From a virus (lineage: Duplodnaviria > Heunggongvirae > Uroviricota > Caudoviricetes): a DNA stretch of 64,000 nt. Location of the stretch: positions 2,322-66,321 of the IMG/VR virus record IMGVR_UViG_2529292920_000018. One strand, 5' to 3'. This document shows, piece by piece, positions 2,902-60,105 of the stretch; the stretch's first letter is position 1, and each line of letters opens with the position of its first letter. The position numbers and the translations under genes were made by a program. The notes below the pieces were generated by a model, which was not told the DNA's origin, made no database searches, and saw nothing but the letters and a program-made list of their open reading frames with translations.

Positions 2902-4052
2902 TTTTTCTTCTCCTTAATCACCGTCGATGTACTGCCATCCGGGTGATAAACCGTGAGTTTCTGAGTTTTTTGTTTTTTCCCTCTTGTGACTGGCCCCCGT
3001 GCCACTTCCAGCTCTGTGGTGTAGCCGCTGTTACGGTCAAACGCATGGCGGGCAGTGGTTATGAGCCATGGCCCGGATAACTGCCCAAAACCCACCAGTT
3101 CAATTTTGTTGCCTGCTGTCAGTTGAGGTGTTCCCGTCAGCGTCAGGGAGCCGTTCTGCTGGTATTCGTTATGTCTGGCCAGTGCTGAATCCGCTTTAAT
3201 CCGGGCACTGTCCGGGTCGCTGACGCGGCTGTTAACTTTAAGTGAGTCAGCGCTGGTAACCTTACCACCTTTGAGCTTTTTGTCGCTTTCACGGGTACCA
3301 CCATCAGCTTCGTAGACGATCAGTTTTTTACTGCTGCTTTTCTGGTGTTTTACCTTTGCAGATTTATAGACCCGGTTGATGGTGTCACGCAGGGAAAAGC
3401 GGGCCACATCCTGCGGTTTTAACTGCCTGACCGGCTCCTGACTGCGCAGTGTGGCCAGATGAGAAAAAATCAGCTGGTCACTGACCACTTTCACTGCATA
3501 ACCATACTCGCTGGCCAGCCGGCGCAGAAAACCCACGTCGGTTTCAGCATACTGGGTCACCCGGTCGATTCTGATGGACTCAATGCTGCCCACCAGTTTC
3601 AGTCGGTGCTTTCTGGCAATCCGCCCCGCAACAGCTGCCAGCGTGGTGTTCTCAAAACCACGACTGGTTTTAGTCCGCAGGGCACTGTTAACCGAGGTGG
3701 CCACCCCACGGATAGAAACAACGGAAGCGGGCGAACTCACTTCGATCTCGTCTATAGAGAACGTACCGCAGGACAGCAGCTTCTCGCCCTGATAGCCCAT
3801 TTTCAGCGTCAGCGTGTCACCCTTGCCCGGATACCATTTATCCAGCCAGCGGCCATCGGTGTCGTCCAGCTCCACCTCAATGGTATCGGACTCATTTTTG
3901 ATGTTATCGCTCCAGGTCACACGGGTGACATAAGGCGCGATATCAGAGGTGATGTTTTTCTGCAGATACCACAAAGTGAACACCGGTGTCAGCACATCGC
4001 TGACGCCGGTTAACGCTGATGTGACTTGCGCAGTGCTGTTTATCTCAGCCAT
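2898..4052 (-). CDS. tail protein gpD-like (late control D family)
   Basis: 384-aa ORF; size and position match gpD / Mu P; full length, unlike the truncated P2-like copy at 33673. Confidence 0.75.
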   Translation of the reverse strand: MAEINSTAQVTSALTGVSDVLTPVFTLWYLQKNITSDIAPYVTRVTWSDNIKNESDTIEVELDDTDGRWLDKWYPGKGDTLTLKMGYQGEKLLSCGTFSIDEIEVSSPASVVSIRGVATSVNSALRTKTSRGFENTTLAAVAGRIARKHRLKLVGSIESIRIDRVTQYAETDVGFLRRLASEYGYAVKVVSDQLIFSHLATLRSQEPVRQLKPQDVARFSLRDTINRVYKSAKVKHQKSSSKKLIVYEADGGTRESDKKLKGGKVTSADSLKVNSRVSDPDSARIKADSALARHNEYQQNGSLTLTGTPQLTAGNKIELVGFGQLSGPWLITTARHAFDRNSGYTTELEVARGPVTRGKKQKTQKLTVYHPDGSTSTVIKEKKK

Positions 4053-12062: not shown

Positions 12063-12401
12063 TCACACCCCGCGCAGGATACGAATGACGTCGCCTTCAC
12101 CCCCGGCTTCATCAAGTGCAATACCACAGGATTTACCGTCGCCGGACTGCGGCACGGCTCTGGCCTGAGCATCTGACTGAACAGCCACACCACGGCTGAC
12201 AGCGGCCCCGGCCTCGACAGCAATAATGCCCAGAACGCTCACCGGCGTGCTGTCGCCGGTAACAGCATCCACTTCGGCAACCCCGAGCGCTGCGGCACCG
12301 GCTTTACAGGGGGTATTATCTGCCCCGACAAAACGCTGCTGTGCCAGTGCTGCCCCTGCCGTTACGGTTGTGATCAGAATGACCTGCTGAGTGGTTCCCA
12401 T
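12063..12401 (-). CDS. hypothetical small head protein
   Basis: 112-aa Ala/Gly-rich ORF directly downstream of major capsid gene. Confidence 0.45.
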   Translation of the reverse strand: MGTTQQVILITTVTAGAALAQQRFVGADNTPCKAGAAALGVAEVDAVTGDSTPVSVLGIIAVEAGAAVSRGVAVQSDAQARAVPQSGDGKSCGIALDEAGGEGDVIRILRGV

Positions 12402-51721: not shown

Positions 51722-51894
51722 TGTCAGGAGTCCTGAATAGTGATTAGAGGAGTCACATGTCGGCATCAGTTTCCCGACGATGCGCATCCTCCGCCATCAG
51801 TCCCGGATGGCTTATCACTGACACAACAGCACCTTAGCGAATCGCGTGGCGCGACTCAGTAGCCTTGCCGTGTATTCATCACGGCGAGGTATTC

Positions 51895-53667
51895 ATGACC
51901 ATCACCACAGACACCACTCTTTTACACGACCCGCGTCGTCAGGCGGCGCTGCTGTACTGGCAGGGATTTTCCGTGCCGCAGATTGCCGCCATGTTGCAGA
52001 TGAAACGCCCGACGGTGCAGAGCTGGAAACAGCGCGACGGCTGGGACAGCGTTGCCCCCATCAGCCGTGTCGAAATGAGTCTGGAAGCGCGGCTGACCCA
52101 GCTCATCATCAAACCGCAGAAAACCGGCGGTGACTTCAAGGAAATTGACCTGCTCGGACGCCAGATTGAACGACTGGCACGGGTCAACCGTTACAGTCAG
52201 ACCGGCAACGAGGCAGACCTTAATCCGAACGTCGCTAACCGCAACAAAGGCGGGCGTCGCAAACCGAAAAAGAATTTTTTCAGTGACGAGGCCATCGAAA
52301 AGCTGGAGCAGATTTTCTTTGAGCAGTCTTTCGACTATCAGTTGCACTGGTATCGCGCAGGGCTTGAGCACCGCATCCGCGATATCCTGAAATCCCGCCA
52401 GATTGGCGCGACGTTTTATTTTTCCCGCGAGGCGCTGCTGCGCGCCCTGAAAACCGGTCATAACCAGATTTTTCTGTCGGCCAGTAAAACGCAGGCGTAT
52501 GTGTTCCGCGAATACATCATCGCCTTTGCCCGGCTGGTTGACGTTGACCTGACCGGTGACCCGATTGTCCTGGGCAATAACGGCGCAAAACTGATTTTTC
52601 TCGGCACCAACTCCAACACCGCGCAGAGCCATAACGGCGACCTGTACGTCGACGAGATTTTCTGGATCCCGAATTTTCAGGTACTGCGTAAGGTGGCATC
52701 AGGTATGGCCTCACAGAGTCACCTGCGCTCGACCTATTTCTCCACCCCGTCCACACTGGCGCACGACGCCTACCCGTTCTGGTCGGGTGAACTGTTTAAC
52801 CGGGGACGCGCCAGCGCCGCCGAACGCGTGGAAATCGACGTCAGTCATAACGCCCTTGCCGGTGGGCTTCTCTGTGCGGACGGCCAGTGGCGGCAGATTG
52901 TCACCATTGAGGACGCCCTGAAAGGCGGCTGCACGCTGTTCGACATTGAGCAGCTCAAACGTGAAAACAGCGCCGACGATTTTAAAAACCTGTTCATGTG
53001 TGAATTTGTTGACGACAAGGCGTCGGTGTTCCCGTTCGAGGAGCTGCAACGCTGCATGGTCGACACGCTGGAAGAATGGGAAGACTATGCGCCGTTTGCC
53101 ACGAATCCGTTCGGCTCCCGCCCGGTCTGGATTGGTTACGACCCGTCACACCGTGGCGACAGTGCCGGATGCGTGGTGCTGGCACCGCCGGTGGTGGCCG
53201 GTGGCAAATTCAGAATACTTGAGCGTCACCAGTGGAAAGGCATGGACTTTGCCACCCAGGCAGAATCCATCCGCAAACTCACCGAAAAATACAACGTCGA
53301 ATACATCGGAATTGATGCCACCGGCCTCGGTGTCGGCGTGTTCCAGCTCGTTCGCTCGTTCTATCCCGCCGCGCGCGATATCCGCTACACGCCGGAAATG
53401 AAAACCGCAATGGTGCTCAAGGCAAAAGACGTTATTCGCCGTGGCTGTCTGGAATATGACGTCAGCGCCACCGACATCACCAGCTCGTTCATGGCTATCC
53501 GCAAGACCATGACCAGCAGCGGACGCAGCGCCACCTATGAGGCCAGCCGCAGCGAGGAAGCCAGCCACGCCGACCTCGCCTGGGCGACCATGCACGCCCT
53601 GTTAAATGAGCCACTCACCGCCGGTATCAGCACTCCGCTGACATCCACCATTCTGGAGTTTTACTGA
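51895..53667 (+). CDS. P: terminase ATPase (large) subunit P
   Basis: 590 aa from MTITTDTTLLHDP..., divergent from O as in P2. Confidence 0.85.
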   Translation: MTITTDTTLLHDPRRQAALLYWQGFSVPQIAAMLQMKRPTVQSWKQRDGWDSVAPISRVEMSLEARLTQLIIKPQKTGGDFKEIDLLGRQIERLARVNRYSQTGNEADLNPNVANRNKGGRRKPKKNFFSDEAIEKLEQIFFEQSFDYQLHWYRAGLEHRIRDILKSRQIGATFYFSREALLRALKTGHNQIFLSASKTQAYVFREYIIAFARLVDVDLTGDPIVLGNNGAKLIFLGTNSNTAQSHNGDLYVDEIFWIPNFQVLRKVASGMASQSHLRSTYFSTPSTLAHDAYPFWSGELFNRGRASAAERVEIDVSHNALAGGLLCADGQWRQIVTIEDALKGGCTLFDIEQLKRENSADDFKNLFMCEFVDDKASVFPFEELQRCMVDTLEEWEDYAPFATNPFGSRPVWIGYDPSHRGDSAGCVVLAPPVVAGGKFRILERHQWKGMDFATQAESIRKLTEKYNVEYIGIDATGLGVGVFQLVRSFYPAARDIRYTPEMKTAMVLKAKDVIRRGCLEYDVSATDITSSFMAIRKTMTSSGRSATYEASRSEEASHADLAWATMHALLNEPLTAGISTPLTSTILEFY

Positions 53668-54701
53668 TGAGTAAGAAAAAAGGGAAAACACCGCAGCCAG
53701 CGGTGAAAACAATGACTGCCAGCGCCCCGAAAATGGAGGCATTCACCTTTGGTGAGCCGGTGCCGGTACTCGACCGCCGTGATATTCTGGATTACGTCGA
53801 GTGCATCAGTAACGGCAGATGGTATGAGCCACCGGTCAGCTTTACCGGTCTGGCAAAAAGCCTGCGTGCTGCCGTGCATCACAGCTCACCGATTTACGTC
53901 AAACGTAATATTCTGGCCTCAACGTTTATCCCGCACCCGTGGCTTTCCCAGCAGGATTTCAGCCGCTTTGTGCTGGATTTTCTGGTGTTCGGTAATGCGT
54001 TTCTGGAAAAGCGCTACAGCACTACCGGTAAGGTCATCAGACTGGAAACCTCACCTGCAAAATATACCCGCCGTGGCGTGGAGGAGGATGTTTACTGGTG
54101 GGTGCCATCCTTCAACGAGCCGACACCTTTCGCGCCCGGCTCCGTGTTTCACCTGCTGGAGCCGGATATCAATCAGGAGCTGTACGGCCTGCCGGAATAT
54201 CTCAGCGCCCTTAACTCTGCCTGGCTGAATGAGTCAGCCACACTGTTCCGCCGCAAGTATTACGAAAACGGCGCGCATGCCGGATATATCATGTACGTCA
54301 CCGATGCCGTGCAGGATCGCAACGATATCGAAATGCTTCGCGAAAACATGGTGAAGTCGAAAGGCCGCAACAACTTTAAAAATCTGTTTCTCTATGCCCC
54401 ACAGGGAAAAGCCGACGGCATTAAAATTATCCCGCTCAGTGAAGTGGCGACGAAGGACGATTTTTTTAATATCAAAAAAGCCAGTGCCGCAGACCTGCTG
54501 GACGCGCACCGCATCCCCTTTCAGTTGATGGGCGGCAAGCCGGAGAACGTCGGGTCGCTGGGTGATATTGAGAAAGTGGCAAAGGTCTTTGTCCGCAATG
54601 AGCTTATCCCGTTACAGGACAGGATCCGCGAGATAAACGGCTGGCTCGGTCAGGAGGTCATCCGCTTTAAAAACTACTCACTGGACACTGACAACGGCTG
54701 A
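53667..54701 (+). CDS. Q: portal protein Q
   Basis: 344-aa ORF downstream of P, adjacent to cos. Confidence 0.85.
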   Translation: MSKKKGKTPQPAVKTMTASAPKMEAFTFGEPVPVLDRRDILDYVECISNGRWYEPPVSFTGLAKSLRAAVHHSSPIYVKRNILASTFIPHPWLSQQDFSRFVLDFLVFGNAFLEKRYSTTGKVIRLETSPAKYTRRGVEEDVYWWVPSFNEPTPFAPGSVFHLLEPDINQELYGLPEYLSALNSAWLNESATLFRRKYYENGAHAGYIMYVTDAVQDRNDIEMLRENMVKSKGRNNFKNLFLYAPQGKADGIKIIPLSEVATKDDFFNIKKASAADLLDAHRIPFQLMGGKPENVGSLGDIEKVAKVFVRNELIPLQDRIREINGWLGQEVIRFKNYSLDTDNG

Positions 54702-54870: not shown

Positions 54871-54889
54871 GTGCTTTCCCCGCCTCGCC
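54871..54889. other. cos: cos cohesive-end sequence, P2 type
   Basis: Reverse complement reads GGCGAGGCGGGGAAAGCAC, which matches the P2/186 19-nt cohesive end as I recall it. Confidence 0.6.
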
Positions 54890-55049
54890 CGCCCGCTTCA
54901 TGGGGCGGTTTTAATGCAGTTGCATTACCATACAGAAGTACTGCCACGTCTGACAATTCATAGCTAGAATGTATAGCATATGTTGCATGCAAAATAATGC
55001 ATATAAAGAATGCTTTTCACTCAATACTTCATCATACGATTTTGTTGGC

Positions 55050-55832
55050 TCATTTTAGAAGCCCTATTATAGCTGCAATCATACTTCCTACGCCGCCGAC
55101 TGCTGCGAAAAAAGTAGCCCAAAACATTTTCTTCTGAGTACTCAAATTCTCTCTGTACCGCACCTCATCTTTATTGAATGTAGATATTGTGTTCAGTGCC
55201 TTTCCTGTTGGCCTAAATCCACTACTTGTTTCAACAAGATCTCCATTCTGAACAAGAGAATTCAGGCATAAACGAAGCTCTTTACGCATCCTGTTTTTAT
55301 CGTCATGGTATACCCATAAACTACCAGCGACTTCGGTCATTATTGAAAACTCACTAAACACAGTTTGAGCATCCCATTCACGATACATTCTTATAATCGT
55401 TGAGAGAACAAACATCACATCAGTTATTTCTTTTTTTTGCTGTCGATAAATATATTTTTCACGACTAAATTTTATATTTTCATAATTAGACCTTACTCTA
55501 AAGAACAACTCCCTTAAAAATGTTAAATCATTTAAAGAGTTAAATCGCAACTCATGCGCACGGTAGTAGTAAACACCAAAAAAAGAATCAGGCGTAACCT
55601 CAGAAATATCCAAGCATGAACTTATATGAAATCTACGCTCCTCATCATCCCATTTAAAAGCCTTTATCTTCCCATCAACCAAACAGTCAAAGAGGTATTC
55701 TGTATCATTTTTATCTTTAATATATACAGAGTACATATCATACTTAATCGCGTTTTCATATAACAAACTAATACGGCCATCATCTGGCGTTCTTTTCTTA
55801 TCAAACTTCTTAAGTTGGTTTATAACTTTCAT
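55050..55832 (-). CDS. hypothetical cargo protein with C-terminal membrane anchor
   Basis: 260-aa ORF in an AT-rich island; C-terminal TM MFWATFFAAVGGVGSMIAAIIGLL. Confidence 0.5.
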   Translation of the reverse strand: MKVINQLKKFDKKRTPDDGRISLLYENAIKYDMYSVYIKDKNDTEYLFDCLVDGKIKAFKWDDEERRFHISSCLDISEVTPDSFFGVYYYRAHELRFNSLNDLTFLRELFFRVRSNYENIKFSREKYIYRQQKKEITDVMFVLSTIIRMYREWDAQTVFSEFSIMTEVAGSLWVYHDDKNRMRKELRLCLNSLVQNGDLVETSSGFRPTGKALNTISTFNKDEVRYRENLSTQKKMFWATFFAAVGGVGSMIAAIIGLLK

Positions 55833-55941
55833 AACATTCTCGCAGTGCTAATCTCATACGCAACAAATCTCGGCTCTGCCGCTCTAATAGTCAAAAAATG
55901 CCGACACCCAATTAAATATTCAGCGTCGGCATTGTAAGATA

Positions 55942-56673
55942 TCAATTATCTATGATTGATATCACCTTACCAGTTTTTATATCAACACGCGCAGCAATCG
56001 TCTGTTTCACCACTCCGCCATAAGCATTTTTTCCGCGAAACGTGGTTTTCACAATGGCATGAGGGTCTTTATTCAAAACCAGATGATATACCGTTGACAC
56101 ATGTTTATAAGATGAATCATCGTTCATATTATCTTTAATTAGTTTTTCCAATGGACGATAAGAACCATCCCAACCACTAAAATTACTCTGAAATGTATCA
56201 AGATTGATTTTATTGTTTAGTGAATTCGGGTCATTTTCATAATCATTAAAGCACCACCCAAGAACATCACCGAGTTTCAACTCATCATCTTTGGTAAATG
56301 TATATTCACTCATGCAGGCATAAAACGCATCTGACGCGGTGGCTGGAACTTCCTTAAAATCAATGTAACTATTCACAATATCGTGTCGTGTTTTCTTTGA
56401 CTCGTTCCGATATTCCTTGAGTGTTTTTTTACCATATTTGAATGTTTTTTGGACTTTATGTTCTGCAACGGTTGATGTTTCAGTTTTATCAACTGGCTGG
56501 CTTTTTTCTGTTGGATAGAGTATTGAACCAATTATGCTCAATACAAAACCTCCTCCGAGATAAACCGCACTTGCACGTTTGCGGTTTGGCATTCGCACCA
56601 GTGATGGCTTGATTAACCCGATGAAGAAAGCAACGAAAAAAGCGAGTGATAGAAAAGCGATTATAGTATCCAT
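55942..56673 (-). CDS. hypothetical cargo membrane protein
   Basis: Start at ATG 56673 with AGGA 7 nt upstream; two N-terminal TM helices; AT-rich codon usage. Confidence 0.5.
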   Translation of the reverse strand: MDTIIAFLSLAFFVAFFIGLIKPSLVRMPNRKRASAVYLGGGFVLSIIGSILYPTEKSQPVDKTETSTVAEHKVQKTFKYGKKTLKEYRNESKKTRHDIVNSYIDFKEVPATASDAFYACMSEYTFTKDDELKLGDVLGWCFNDYENDPNSLNNKINLDTFQSNFSGWDGSYRPLEKLIKDNMNDDSSYKHVSTVYHLVLNKDPHAIVKTTFRGKNAYGGVVKQTIAARVDIKTGKVISIIDN

Positions 56674-56896
56674 AGCTATCCTTTTTGCATCATCCACATA
56701 AAAAATCGACCTCATGTTAGCAACAGGATGCTTACTTTTGAATATTTGTAAGTTGTTAGCTCTCCAACCTAACTCCTTTCAACCGTCAAAAACCGGCACC
56801 AACGCAGTAAAAATATGTCTGTCAACTAACGCCTCGCTACGCTCGTTGTTCAACCCCGCCAGCCCTGAAAACAAGTTTCACGACTGGCGGCGTTCT

Positions 56897-57115
56897 CTAT
56901 CGTCTTCGTGGTGGTGGCGCAACTCTGGACTGACCGATATAGTTAAGCCGCCCGTAATTATCCCGAACTATTTCGGCACACCCGACCAGCTCATCGGGCG
57001 TCAGATTTTCGTTGACCATAATCCGCTGTAAACGCTGAACAATAGCCATCAGCTTGATATTTTTAGTTTTATGGTGCGGTATCTCGCCTGGTATTCTGTG
57101 CATTATCCAAGCCAC
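56897..57115 (-). CDS. hypothetical small protein
   Basis: 72-aa ORF overlapping the end of the upstream gene; weak support. Confidence 0.25.
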   Translation of the reverse strand: MAWIMHRIPGEIPHHKTKNIKLMAIVQRLQRIMVNENLTPDELVGCAEIVRDNYGRLNYIGQSRVAPPPRRR

Positions 57116-57558
57116 CCGTTTTGCTTTGCACGCTCCACCTGTTCATCTGAATAGTTCCATATCCCATCCGCAGCAACCACTGCCCCGCCAGACAGCCCCG
57201 TCTCTGGTTCATACATAACAGCAAGGCCGAGCTGATGCATAATTTCATGATTAATTCTGAATACCAGACCACGTTCACTAAGTTCTTTCCAGTTCACAAT
57301 CTTATATGCGCCCGTATTAAGCAGCTCAATACTTAGCAAGACATAATCTTCCAGCCAGTCTGACAGGTCAGTAACATCTGTTATCCGGGCTTCAACCTTT
57401 CGCCCCGTAAACACACCCTGCACCCATTCATGCAAAATCAACGTGTCCCCGCGCTCATAATTACGGTCATTTTTCCGAAACTCTGCGCGTTTTTTTCCTT
57501 CCAGTACAAGGTCGAAATATTTTGCGTGCAGCTTTACCTCGTGAATTTTTGCCATCAT
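57103..57558 (-). CDS. ASCH/DUF3850-like domain protein with HExxH motif
   Basis: N-terminal KIHEVKLHAKYFDLVLEGKKRAEFRKNDRNYERGDTLILHEW; INHEIMHQLG near C-terminus; GGAG RBS; start abuts the A stop. Confidence 0.5.
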   Translation of the reverse strand: MMAKIHEVKLHAKYFDLVLEGKKRAEFRKNDRNYERGDTLILHEWVQGVFTGRKVEARITDVTDLSDWLEDYVLLSIELLNTGAYKIVNWKELSERGLVFRINHEIMHQLGLAVMYEPETGLSGGAVVAADGIWNYSDEQVERAKQNGWLG

Positions 57559-59840
57559 GTCCACTCCATTACTGTTGAGAATCCCGGCCACTCATCAGCG
57601 ACCGGATACGTGAATTTTTTCCCGTCATAATTTACGGTTGCCCCACGCGCCAGCGCCTCAAGCTCCCATCGCTGCGGCCTGATACCGTTCTGAGCAAGGT
57701 CAACGCGGATACGGGTAATTTGCATTCGTTCCGACCGGGTCAGTCTGGCCGATGGTGCCATTTCATGCGGTTTTAACGGGCTTCCGTTTCTTTGCTGGCG
57801 ATTTGGTGTTCTCAGGCCATGTTTTAATGCACCTCTGAGCGCCCTCACGACCTCCGGGTCATTCCATTCGATGACACCGTCATCAACCAGATTAAGCACT
57901 GCTGCGGCGTGCTCAGAAGGTGTGGGAGCTGGTAACGAAGTATCACCACCGGTGAGCTTTCCACAGTTATTGACAGGACTCCGAGGCGCGGCGATGCCGC
58001 TTTTTAAAGTCAAAGGCTCAACGACCGGAACTTTCGGCACAATGCGCCAGTCCGTCGTTCTGGTGATATGAATATGACGCGCGCCGAGATGCGGCGCGTA
58101 AATGCCGACCACTCTCTCGACTTCTTCCTCGTACTCGTTAACGTCATCCGACGGGCTACGGGCAACCCTGACAGTCTGACAATCGCGCGGGACATTTGCC
58201 CCACCCTGCGCGCTGATATACAACGCAAAATCACCACTGTCTGCGGCAGCGCGAGCAGCCTCGACGCGTTCGTCAAACTCATCAGCAATACTGACGCCGC
58301 GAGGCAATTTGCGTAGTTCACGGTAAGCCCCCATTGTCGGCAGTCCAACCGTTTTAAATTGCGGGATGCGCCACGTTGACGCCCATGCGGTAACAGCCGC
58401 GGCAGTATCTTTAAGCGGCTTACCGGTATCGTTATCGAGCTGACCATCCAGTGCATAGCCGTCGATATTTTTTGAAATGTATTTCGCGATATATCCCGCA
58501 GCACCGCCCCGGTTAAGGTGCTTTGCCTGAAAACGGTTTCGCGCTGCTCCTCTTTCGTCGCCATCCTCTTTGAGCGCATAGCGACGCATGATTTCAATAA
58601 TCTGGTTACGCTGGCGTGGATTACAAAAAAGCATCATATGCCAGTGCGGCGTTCCGTCGTGGTGTGGCTCAACGACACGCAAACCGTAGGCCTGTAAATC
58701 ATTATCCTTGAATGCCGTGCGCATCAGGCTCCAGATACGGCAGAGATAACGCTGCGCATCCTTTGGATTAAATGCCTCATGGTTCCAGCCGTGATTAAGC
58801 TGGACGGTTTTACTTTCGCCTTTTCCGACCTGACGTGTCGGGTGATACTTTGACGGCGCGGTCAGCGTGATAAACATCCCCACATCACCCTCTGCGGCGG
58901 CGTAACGCTCAATTCCGGCGATGGTGTTCATCAGCTCCATCCGGCGAATTTCTGGATTAGAAATACTGCCCATCACCTTACTGATAAGGTCGATGCGTTC
59001 GCCGGTTTCCCTGTTTTCAAGGTCACACGATTTAAGAAATTCCAGATTTGCCTGGCGGCGCGCACGCACATCACGAATAGCATGTTTACTGGCATAAGGT
59101 GAACGGTCTTTATTGACCTCCCCGACAGCAATCAGTAACGCCTCATGCCAACGCATACGCTGGCCTTTAAGCTGATGAGTCCACCACTCATCGTTAAACA
59201 GACGGGCAATGGCAGAATATGCCTGCCTCGTGGTCATCTGCCCTTTACGGTATTTTTTCCAGTAGAGAGGGGAAATATTGAAAGCACGTGCAGCGCCAGC
59301 AACATGACCATACAGGTGAGCCTGCGCCTCATCCGTAAACAGCGATTCTTTTTCGCCATGCGCATCCACCCAGGCATCGCAGAGTTCCTCATACATCATG
59401 AAAAGCTGCGATGAGATACGGGCGGCAAACTTTTTCAGCTCCTTGTCATTCATTCCCGGCAGGCGTGCATAGTGGTCACGCTCTGCCAAAAACAGCAACG
59501 ACGCGTCGGTGTTCATTTCATGGCGCTGATTCACACGCTCAATACGCGGCCATAAACGACGCTGAAAAGTGGATGTGAGGAAATAAAACCCGTGCACCGG
59601 GCTTTTATTGCGCCGGATGTAGTCATAGCGTGAAGTAAACAGCGAGCGCAAAAAATAAGGCAGGCGATTTATCGTGGATAAAACACCTTGCACCTGACGC
59701 ATCTCGTCACGTGTAAGGGGTCTTTCGCGCCCGACGGCCTCGCGTGGCGCGTTCCATGCATAAGCACCGGTAAACGCCTTACCGGTGCCTGCAGCAAATG
59801 CTGAAGGAGGGACAAAACGCCCGGAGGCTTTAACGGCCAT
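57555..59840 (-). CDS. A: replication initiation protein A (rolling-circle)
   Basis: 761 aa from ATG 59840 (MAVKASGRFVPPSAF...), very close to P2 gpA as recalled. Confidence 0.85.
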   Translation of the reverse strand: MAVKASGRFVPPSAFAAGTGKAFTGAYAWNAPREAVGRERPLTRDEMRQVQGVLSTINRLPYFLRSLFTSRYDYIRRNKSPVHGFYFLTSTFQRRLWPRIERVNQRHEMNTDASLLFLAERDHYARLPGMNDKELKKFAARISSQLFMMYEELCDAWVDAHGEKESLFTDEAQAHLYGHVAGAARAFNISPLYWKKYRKGQMTTRQAYSAIARLFNDEWWTHQLKGQRMRWHEALLIAVGEVNKDRSPYASKHAIRDVRARRQANLEFLKSCDLENRETGERIDLISKVMGSISNPEIRRMELMNTIAGIERYAAAEGDVGMFITLTAPSKYHPTRQVGKGESKTVQLNHGWNHEAFNPKDAQRYLCRIWSLMRTAFKDNDLQAYGLRVVEPHHDGTPHWHMMLFCNPRQRNQIIEIMRRYALKEDGDERGAARNRFQAKHLNRGGAAGYIAKYISKNIDGYALDGQLDNDTGKPLKDTAAAVTAWASTWRIPQFKTVGLPTMGAYRELRKLPRGVSIADEFDERVEAARAAADSGDFALYISAQGGANVPRDCQTVRVARSPSDDVNEYEEEVERVVGIYAPHLGARHIHITRTTDWRIVPKVPVVEPLTLKSGIAAPRSPVNNCGKLTGGDTSLPAPTPSEHAAAVLNLVDDGVIEWNDPEVVRALRGALKHGLRTPNRQQRNGSPLKPHEMAPSARLTRSERMQITRIRVDLAQNGIRPQRWELEALARGATVNYDGKKFTYPVADEWPGFSTVMEWT

Positions 59841-60105
59841 ATGAGCCAAAAGCCTCTGAACAACGCCTGCTGAGTTGCTCAACCTGCGCGTTTAAATCAG
59901 CAAAAGACTTTGCGCTTCCGGTCAGAATATCGTGATGCATCAGGCCGGAAACGAGCTGGCTTAATTTCGGATAATAACCAACCACTGCCAGCCATTCCTG
60001 ACCGGCGTTTTTACCGCTTTCCGCTCTCTTTTTCTCGTGGAGAATAAACTGAAAGCTGTCACTGGTAACGACATAACGTTCGCCAATTTCAATACGAATA
60101 CTCAT
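59830..60105 (-). CDS. hypothetical P2-type early protein
   Basis: 91-aa ORF upstream of A. Confidence 0.5.
   Translation of the reverse strand: MSIRIEIGERYVVTSDSFQFILHEKKRAESGKNAGQEWLAVVGYYPKLSQLVSGLMHHDILTGSAKSFADLNAQVEQLSRRCSEAFGSYGR

Follow-up and report, generated by a model that had tools for sequence, protein, structure and literature searches.

The cos-proximal hotspot of a P2-like prophage segment, which lies in a 64-kb stretch of viral DNA (hereafter the window; IMG/VR record IMGVR_UViG_2529292920_000018, positions 2,322 to 66,321) between the portal Q side and replication gene A, carries two neighboring genes, A' and B'. The evidence slightly favours a reading in which A' and B' are two independent, horizontally acquired single-gene accessory modules that stand side by side, of which A' would act in superinfection exclusion and B' would be an anti-phage factor. 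A' is an ortholog of coliphage 186 Orf97, and B' belongs to a large unnamed family of tail-anchored winged-helix proteins. The type of locus, its gene arrangement and both proteins have already been catalogued, and the ortholog of A' is a named protein with a reported exclusion phenotype. Recognition of the B' family is new, and so is the predicted topology and fold of Orf97, namely a probably periplasmic, disulfide-containing, HdeA/Tai4-like domain.

Each of the two genes is found without the other. This has been revealed by two reciprocal surveys of IMG/VR loci, one seeded with A' (n = 50) and one with B' (n = 35). The interval from A' to portal Q holds a B' family member in 17 of the 50 A'-seeded loci, a very divergent family with two transmembrane (TM) segments, here termed C, in 10, a 326-amino-acid (aa) PDC-S64-like protein in 4 and a 429-aa protein in 3. 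Further occupants of this slot are AbiP2 (PADLOC, 3e-162), PDC-S31/DUF2971, HNH proteins, a GmrSD_N/NsnA-like gene with a partner and a three-gene ATPase set, and some loci hold nothing after A', as in phage 186. About a dozen unrelated cargos alternate with B' behind A'. In the reciprocal survey, A' lies upstream of B' in 20 loci and is missing from the other 15, where B' directly follows gpA, Tum/DinI-like genes, or a helix-turn-helix (HTH) gene and a putative retron-type reverse transcriptase, the last assigned by eye from its YVDD motif. The preliminary description of the window had proposed that A' and B' form a two-gene cassette acting as one system. Because co-occurrence of A' and B' is not conserved, this proposal does not hold.

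A putative terminator and the end of a stretch of DNA homology mark the boundary between A' and B'. A terminator-like hairpin begins 9 nt past the A' stop codon, with a 12-bp stem, a minimum free energy (MFE) of -23.2 kcal/mol and a z score of -6.5, and is followed by UUUUUU. DNA homology with other A'-bearing phages reaches no further than the stop codon of A' (about 55951). A weak promoter-like sequence, TTGACT-17-GAGATT, precedes B', and a promoter scan found nothing convincing immediately upstream of A' or B'. Table S5A of Rousset et al. (2022) lists this exact four-gene arrangement, and Table S5B of the same study lists the two genes separately, A' as system #12 with 210 occurrences ('2 TM') and B' as system #68 with 62 occurrences ('1 TM'). 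In the portion of Table S2 of that study available to us, neither gene is among the tested constructs.

In an alternative reading, A' and B' would make up a single membrane-bound defence system that needs both genes, such as a sensor in the periplasm with an effector in the cytoplasm. This would explain why A' and B' are adjacent, co-directional and alike in AT-richness, and the pair also recurs in 186-like prophages of Enterobacter, Klebsiella and Cronobacter with 55-59% identity for B' and 75-78% for A'. In addition, all six E. coli complete genomes with B' have A' immediately upstream. However, A' is present in 84 and B' in only 6 of 5426 such genomes, and a B' that always follows A' is what position alone would give in that lineage. 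Furthermore, A' occurs alone in phage 186 and elsewhere with about 12 other cargos, B' lacks A' in the loci described above, a strong predicted terminator lies between the two genes, and 186 Orf97 blocks infection by itself according to its RefSeq note. An obligate pair is therefore very unlikely. That two genes adjoin within a hotspot says little about whether they belong to one system. Here, the adjacency of A' and B' follows from position, since A' closes the row of lineage-conserved genes and the swap site comes next.

A' and B' are real genes, because homologs of both are found across Enterobacterales genera and because the ratio of nonsynonymous to synonymous substitution rates (dN/dS), calculated against close variants from E. 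coli, amounts to 0.11-0.19 in A' and 0.31-0.41 in B'. Both are under purifying selection. A' starts with MDTII, and AAGGA is located 8 nt upstream. A longer open reading frame (ORF) of A' extends to 56715, yet every homolog begins at MDT. Coordinates, hydropathy and AlphaFold2 agree with the preliminary description of two co-directional genes whose products have two N-terminal TM helices and one C-terminal TM helix, respectively. The GC content is 0.373 for A' and 0.349 for B', and that at third codon positions is 0.316 and 0.314, compared with a window mean of 0.539 (standard deviation 0.05, 780-bp windows). The stretch 54901-56780 contains all twelve lowest-GC 780-bp windows of the 64 kb, so that the AT-richness noted earlier is borne out. 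These observations support the view that A' and B' are AT-rich foreign cargo encoding membrane proteins. An exclusion or defence role is plausible for genes in this hotspot. Since anti-phage genes are well known to accumulate in the P2 cos-proximal hotspot, further cargo there is expected rather than surprising.

Searches against known families place neither protein in a characterised class. Scans of A' and B' against Pfam-A, NCBIfam and the defence catalogue PADLOC-DB v2.0.0 gave nothing significant and revealed no enzyme family, in agreement with the earlier impression that neither protein carries an enzyme motif. The only weak PADLOC matches are DruD for B' (E 0.02) and PDC-M11B for the orf91-like flank protein (E 0.023). 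In PHROGs, A' belongs to phrog_3403 and B' to phrog_7611, both families of unknown function. Sequence-profile searches of the PDB with the A' and B' families gave no match below E 0.6, a Foldseek search of BFVD with the B' model gave none below E 0.01, and an Rfam search of the region gave only sub-threshold chance matches. Query sequences for P2 Old, P2 Tin and the AC1 system were taken from Table S2 of Rousset et al. (2022). The best BLASTP E value is 0.35 against P2 Old (first 400 aa) and 7.3 against P2 Tin, so that homology to these two proteins is not found, as anticipated in the preliminary description. A P4 RexB-like sequence compared by BLASTP did not match the hotspot proteins. A literature search on orf97 and on single-gene defences combining a winged helix with a TM segment found neither protein characterised and no mechanism. 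The designation of the genes as undescribed thus stands as far as catalogued defence families are concerned, but not otherwise, because A' is an ortholog of 186 orf97 and both genes already appear in the lists of Rousset et al. (2022).

The alignment of A' with 186 Orf97 (NP_052294) is gapless and covers the full length, with 183 of 243 residues identical (75%, E 3e-146), and the match to PHROG 3403, the Orf97 family, extends over 243 of 243 positions (E 3.9e-146). In the RefSeq record of 186 (NC_001317), orf97 (3105-3836; locus L098 in our set) carries the note 'expression from plasmid blocks 186 infection'. The infection block is known only from this note on the 186 gene, and homology suggests that A' would act likewise. 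Orf97 is a 30-year-old ORF of a model phage, and a 2024 review of superinfection exclusion does not mention orf97. Orf97 is conserved over Enterobacterales and reaches Vibrio phages. A tblastn search of phage genomes found A' at 92-96% identity in several Peduovirus genomes, at about 75% in coliphage 186, Erwinia EtG, Salmonella BIS20 and PHB48, thirteen Yersinia phages and Klebsiella Kp4852-2, and at 45% in Vibrio VHML. In the A'-seeded loci, the identity to A' is 91-99% where gpA is of the P2 type and 62-78% where gpA is of the 186 type. Because the identity follows the backbone, A' is a lineage-conserved gene bordering the swap site.

As expected for the Orf97 family, A' lies at the right end between the replication gene and cos. 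According to the RefSeq record of 186, orf97 is part of the LexA-controlled p95 operon, in which tum and the partial terminator t95a precede it and the terminator t95b follows. Tum and orf97 have also been described as the 186 SOS operon (Owen et al. 2017). The 186-type relatives of A' retain tum upstream. A' itself does not belong to a LexA-controlled tum-orf97 SOS operon: a search of the window for LexA boxes (CTGT-N8-ACAG) found a sole site at 12250 and none near A', and the ORF list and a Pfam scan of the locus show no tum/DinI gene upstream of A'.

In the AlphaFold2 model of A' (predicted local distance difference test score, pLDDT, 85), TM1 extends over residues 2-21 and TM2 over 31-52; with hydropathy taken into account, the two helices are placed at 3-21 and 34-52. 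The loop between the two TM helices is basic (KPSLVRMPNRKRAS), so that the positive-inside rule predicts a periplasmic location for the C-terminal domain. A linker (57-73) is disordered in the model. In the C-terminal domain, which is confidently modelled, residues 85-165 form a helical subdomain and residues 190-241 a four-stranded sheet. Two cysteines, C120 and C141, do not vary among 43 homologs, as would fit a disulfide in the periplasm. Among compact structural matches to A', HdeA/HdeB score best, together with Rap1a and Tai4, two immunity proteins of the type VI secretion system (T6SS). Because of the homology to Orf97, the RefSeq note and the predicted periplasmic domain, A' would exert exclusion in the envelope. 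Two helices would anchor A' in the inner membrane with its conserved, probably disulfide-bonded domain facing the periplasm, and A' would thereby act as a superinfection-exclusion protein that stops phages of the P2/186 type, and possibly others, at or before passage of their DNA through the envelope. For example, A' might bind a periplasmic component of the incoming injection machinery.

B' is a representative of a large family. A profile search of 1.84 billion cluster representatives, with clusters defined at 50% identity, recovered 634 clusters at E <= 1e-3, and 221 when the limit was set to E <= 1e-10. Almost all of them are 250-300 aa long and matched over their full length. A single hydrophobic segment is located in the C-terminal part of 63 of 64 sampled members. 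When 21 close and 64 remote relatives were scanned individually, no Pfam or PADLOC family was found and only marginal HTH_45 matches appeared, and a homolog search with the remote B' profile mostly recovered the close family again. In the AlphaFold2 model of B' (pLDDT 87), residues ~30-100 form a six-stranded beta domain, which is followed by a helix (105-132) with a conserved basic stretch (R124, K126, R130 and K133), a winged-helix domain (~139-208) and a single long helix (210-259) that terminates in a TM segment at 241-259, as also seen by hydropathy. The fold by itself suggests that B' may bind nucleic acid. M236, A239, T240, S250 and A253 are invariant in the TM region of the close family, and the TM helix is rich in small residues (AAVGGVGSMIAA) with small-xxx-small motifs. 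This suggests that the TM helix of B' packs specifically against other helices rather than serving as a passive anchor. Membrane insertion, which is expected of the exclusion and abortive-infection classes, is predicted by hydropathy and by the AlphaFold2 helices.

B' may be a single-protein anti-phage factor that acts through exclusion at the inner membrane or through membrane-damaging abortive infection; this is a tentative assignment, with clearly less than an even chance of being correct. Three points speak for it: AbiP2 and other defence genes use the same slot, B' moves between phage types on its own, and a fold of a nucleic-acid-binding kind is joined in B' to a membrane helix that is conserved. 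The conserved C-terminal TM helix would hold the cytoplasmic beta domain and winged helix at the inner membrane face, where the soluble part would recognise phage DNA, on entry or during replication, or else a phage protein. After this step, the TM helix would either retain the target, resulting in exclusion, or oligomerise and damage the membrane, resulting in abortive infection. The broader proposal, that the whole family (at least 634 clusters, ~260 aa), with B' as its first recognised member, represents a new single-protein, membrane-tethered, nucleic-acid-sensing defence distributed as single-gene morons in several temperate phage types, is rather doubtful. A phenotype for B' would provide defence annotation with a new single-gene family outside the coverage of Pfam and PADLOC.

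Two remote members of the B' family with readable context reside in accessory regions of non-P2 prophages, in L100 (6001-6813, 270 aa) and L103 (3863-4672, 269 aa). Their flanking genes include HicAB, YafO, Macro-domain, Rrf2 and Phage_pRha or P22_AR_N (antirepressor) genes, and both loci have HicAB upstream of the B' member and an Rrf2-family gene downstream. In one of the B'-seeded loci, L076 (2655-4534), the genes after B' encode proteins of 402 aa and 224 aa, the former with the motif GASGVGKT, recognised by eye as P-loop-like; these two genes may be a separate two-gene defence module.

The folds of the two proteins also bear on a role in lysogenic conversion, in which A' would be a periplasmic protective factor, such as an HdeA-like stress chaperone or an orphan immunity protein against T6SS peptidoglycan amidases, and B' a membrane-sequestered transcription regulator. 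The fold of A' is nearest to HdeA/HdeB, Rap1a and Tai4, the winged helix of B' has MarR-like structural neighbours, and the carriers include the extraintestinal pathogenic and avian pathogenic E. coli (ExPEC/APEC) strains IHE3034, APEC O78 and MS7163. The P2 hotspot is also known to carry genes outside defence, among them partition systems and cytolethal distending toxin (Rousset et al. 2022). Even so, such a role is unlikely.

Kleisin-, MukF-, JetA/B- and TubR-like proteins are also structural neighbours of B', a winged-helix protein. Together with the membrane anchor, the adjoining cos site and the presence of partition systems in about a quarter of P2-like hotspots (Rousset et al. 2022), they raise the possibility that B' serves the cycle of the phage itself, for instance by anchoring the phage DNA at the membrane so that it can be replicated, partitioned or packaged in the vicinity of cos. 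However, most P2/186-like phages lack B', which occurs in 6 of the 5426 E. coli genomes and in 62 of 18,150 hotspot loci (Table S5B of Rousset et al. 2022). Moreover, B' is freely exchanged with defence genes, and its remote relatives are found in unrelated prophage types amid toxin-antitoxin genes. A function in the phage's own cycle is therefore improbable, and the reading of A' and B' as two independent accessory modules is preferred.

The features of the locus are given in Table 1. On the minus strand after cos, the genes follow in coordinate order as B', A', a 72-aa ORF, an orf91-like gene and gene A. The positions of the cos 19-mer, portal Q and gene A confirm that A' and B' occupy the P2 tin/old slot between cos and gene A, as first described. 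The 19-mer, which we take to be the P2 cohesive end, occurs exactly once in the window, with 0 occurrences expected by chance. It is also found in P2/P4 fragments in Table S2 of Rousset et al. (2022). In this P2 sub-lineage, the 72-aa ORF is one of the conserved elements that flank the hotspot on the left. The orf91-like protein matches PF12961 (1.2e-17), PF24187 (7e-14) and PF04266 (2.5e-10) in Pfam, and its N-terminus, compared by eye, closely matches the P2 orf91 sequence in Table S2 of Rousset et al. (2022). The orf91-like product, with its C-terminal DUF7415, is longer than the P2 orf91 product given there, and its ORF overlaps with the 3' end of the gene A ORF at 57555-57591.

Table 1. 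Features of the cos-proximal hotspot and its flanks (coordinates of the window)
Feature	Position	Strand	Remark
Terminase P	51865-53667	+	P2-like prophage gene
Portal Q	53667-54701	+	P2-like prophage gene
P2-type cos cohesive-end sequence GGCGAGGCGGGGAAAGCAC, 19 nt	54871-54889	-	Exact single match; right edge of hotspot
Gene B', 260 aa	55050-55832	-	Tail-anchored protein; autonomous single-gene hotspot cargo
Intrinsic-terminator-like hairpin and U6	55892-55933	-	Lies between A' and B'
Gene A', 243 aa	55942-56673	-	Ortholog of coliphage 186 Orf97
Two-hairpin element, core GGTTGAACAACGAGC	56823-56894	-	Left edge of variable cargo
Conserved hypothetical ORF, 72 aa	56897-57115	-	WP_000554772 in RefSeq
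orf91-like gene, 162 aa, DUF3850/ASCH and DUF7415	57103-57591	-	P2 orf91 homolog; flank, not cargo
Replication gene A	57555-59882	-	P2-like prophage gene

A conserved element of about 70 nt with two hairpins (AACGCCGCC...GGCGGGGTTGAACAACGAGC...GCGAGGCGTTAGTT) is located just upstream of A' in the window. The core motif of the element occurs once in 47 of the 97 fetched loci. RNAalifold predicts 23 base pairs, 8 of them with compensatory changes, and the MFE is -37.1 kcal/mol with a z score of -5.25; no Rfam family matches the element. In phage 186, a copy is located after orf97 (L098, 3845-3915). The element precedes A' in backbones of the P2 type, follows orf97 in those of the 186 type and precedes B' in loci without A', and it marks the left edge of the cargo in the P2-type and 186-type loci inspected. 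The element may be a recombination anchor for cargo swapping, or it may act in RNA processing or stability. The intergenic stretch between A' and B' (55833-55941, minus strand) can be loosely aligned with the element, first with its hairpin and then with a related downstream stretch. Because of this loose alignment, the A'-B' block may stem from a 186-type orf97-element-cargo arrangement that was inserted behind a P2-type copy of the element.

Some details of the other slot occupants are as follows. Those from AbiP2 to the ATPase set, and the PDC-S64-like protein, were found in L043 (a 518-aa ORF on the opposite strand), L042, L019, L032, L049, L052 and L060; the HNH proteins are two, and the partner of the GmrSD_N/NsnA-like gene has 204 aa. 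The 326-aa PDC-S64-like protein has an R-x4-H motif and zinc ribbons. Proteins of the C family (215-232 aa) follow A' in other Peduovirus and are found in 13 loci in all, including L001 (145-843), L002 (143-841) and L003 (148-795), all on the minus strand. They consist of N-terminal hydrophobic helices (two by eye; a hydropathy scan scored one in a representative) and a C-terminal domain. Identity among the family members is only 22-29%, and neither Pfam nor PADLOC contains a match, so the C family is a further candidate group of membrane cargo for this slot.

Among known systems, A' is most similar to 186 Orf97, with which it shares its length, 75% of the residues along the whole sequence and its place, where both are the final conserved gene ahead of the cargo near cos. 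However, the 186 gene follows tum in an SOS operon and is the last before cos, whereas A' follows the orf91-like gene and the 72-aa ORF and is itself followed by another cargo gene. By analogy, A' would resemble P22 SieA and T4 Imm and Sp, which are likewise small inner-membrane proteins of phages or prophages and stop an infection once adsorption has taken place. T4 Sp works in the periplasm on the tail lysozyme (PMC11436027), and the predicted periplasmic domain of A' has inhibitors of peptidoglycan amidases among its fold neighbours. However, neither sequence kinship nor demonstrated structural kinship of A' with SieA, Imm or Sp has been found.

P2 Old and Tin occupy the same slot between gene A/orf91 and cos and are likewise accessory AT-rich lysogenic-conversion genes. 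They are, however, not homologous to A' or B'. Old is a cytoplasmic ABC-ATPase/Toprim nuclease, and neither Old nor Tin is a membrane protein. P2 Tin targets gp32 of T-even phages. The AC1 '2TM + 1TM + TIR' system (Rousset et al. 2022) comes from the same hotspot, and its description as 2 TM plus 1 TM is superficially similar. However, its 126- and 186-aa proteins are unrelated to A' and B' (BLASTP E at least 5.5), and no TIR gene is present at the locus, so that an identity with AC1 is ruled out.

For B' alone, lambda RexA/RexB offers a working analogy, in which a nucleic-acid-binding sensor would be combined with a membrane component in prophage exclusion. Lambda RexA binds DNA. However, Rex consists of two proteins, of which RexB has four TM segments, whereas B' is one tail-anchored protein. 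If the proposed function of B' is correct, a single polypeptide, B', would act both as sensor and as membrane effector, whereas systems such as Rex or Kiwa use two proteins for this.

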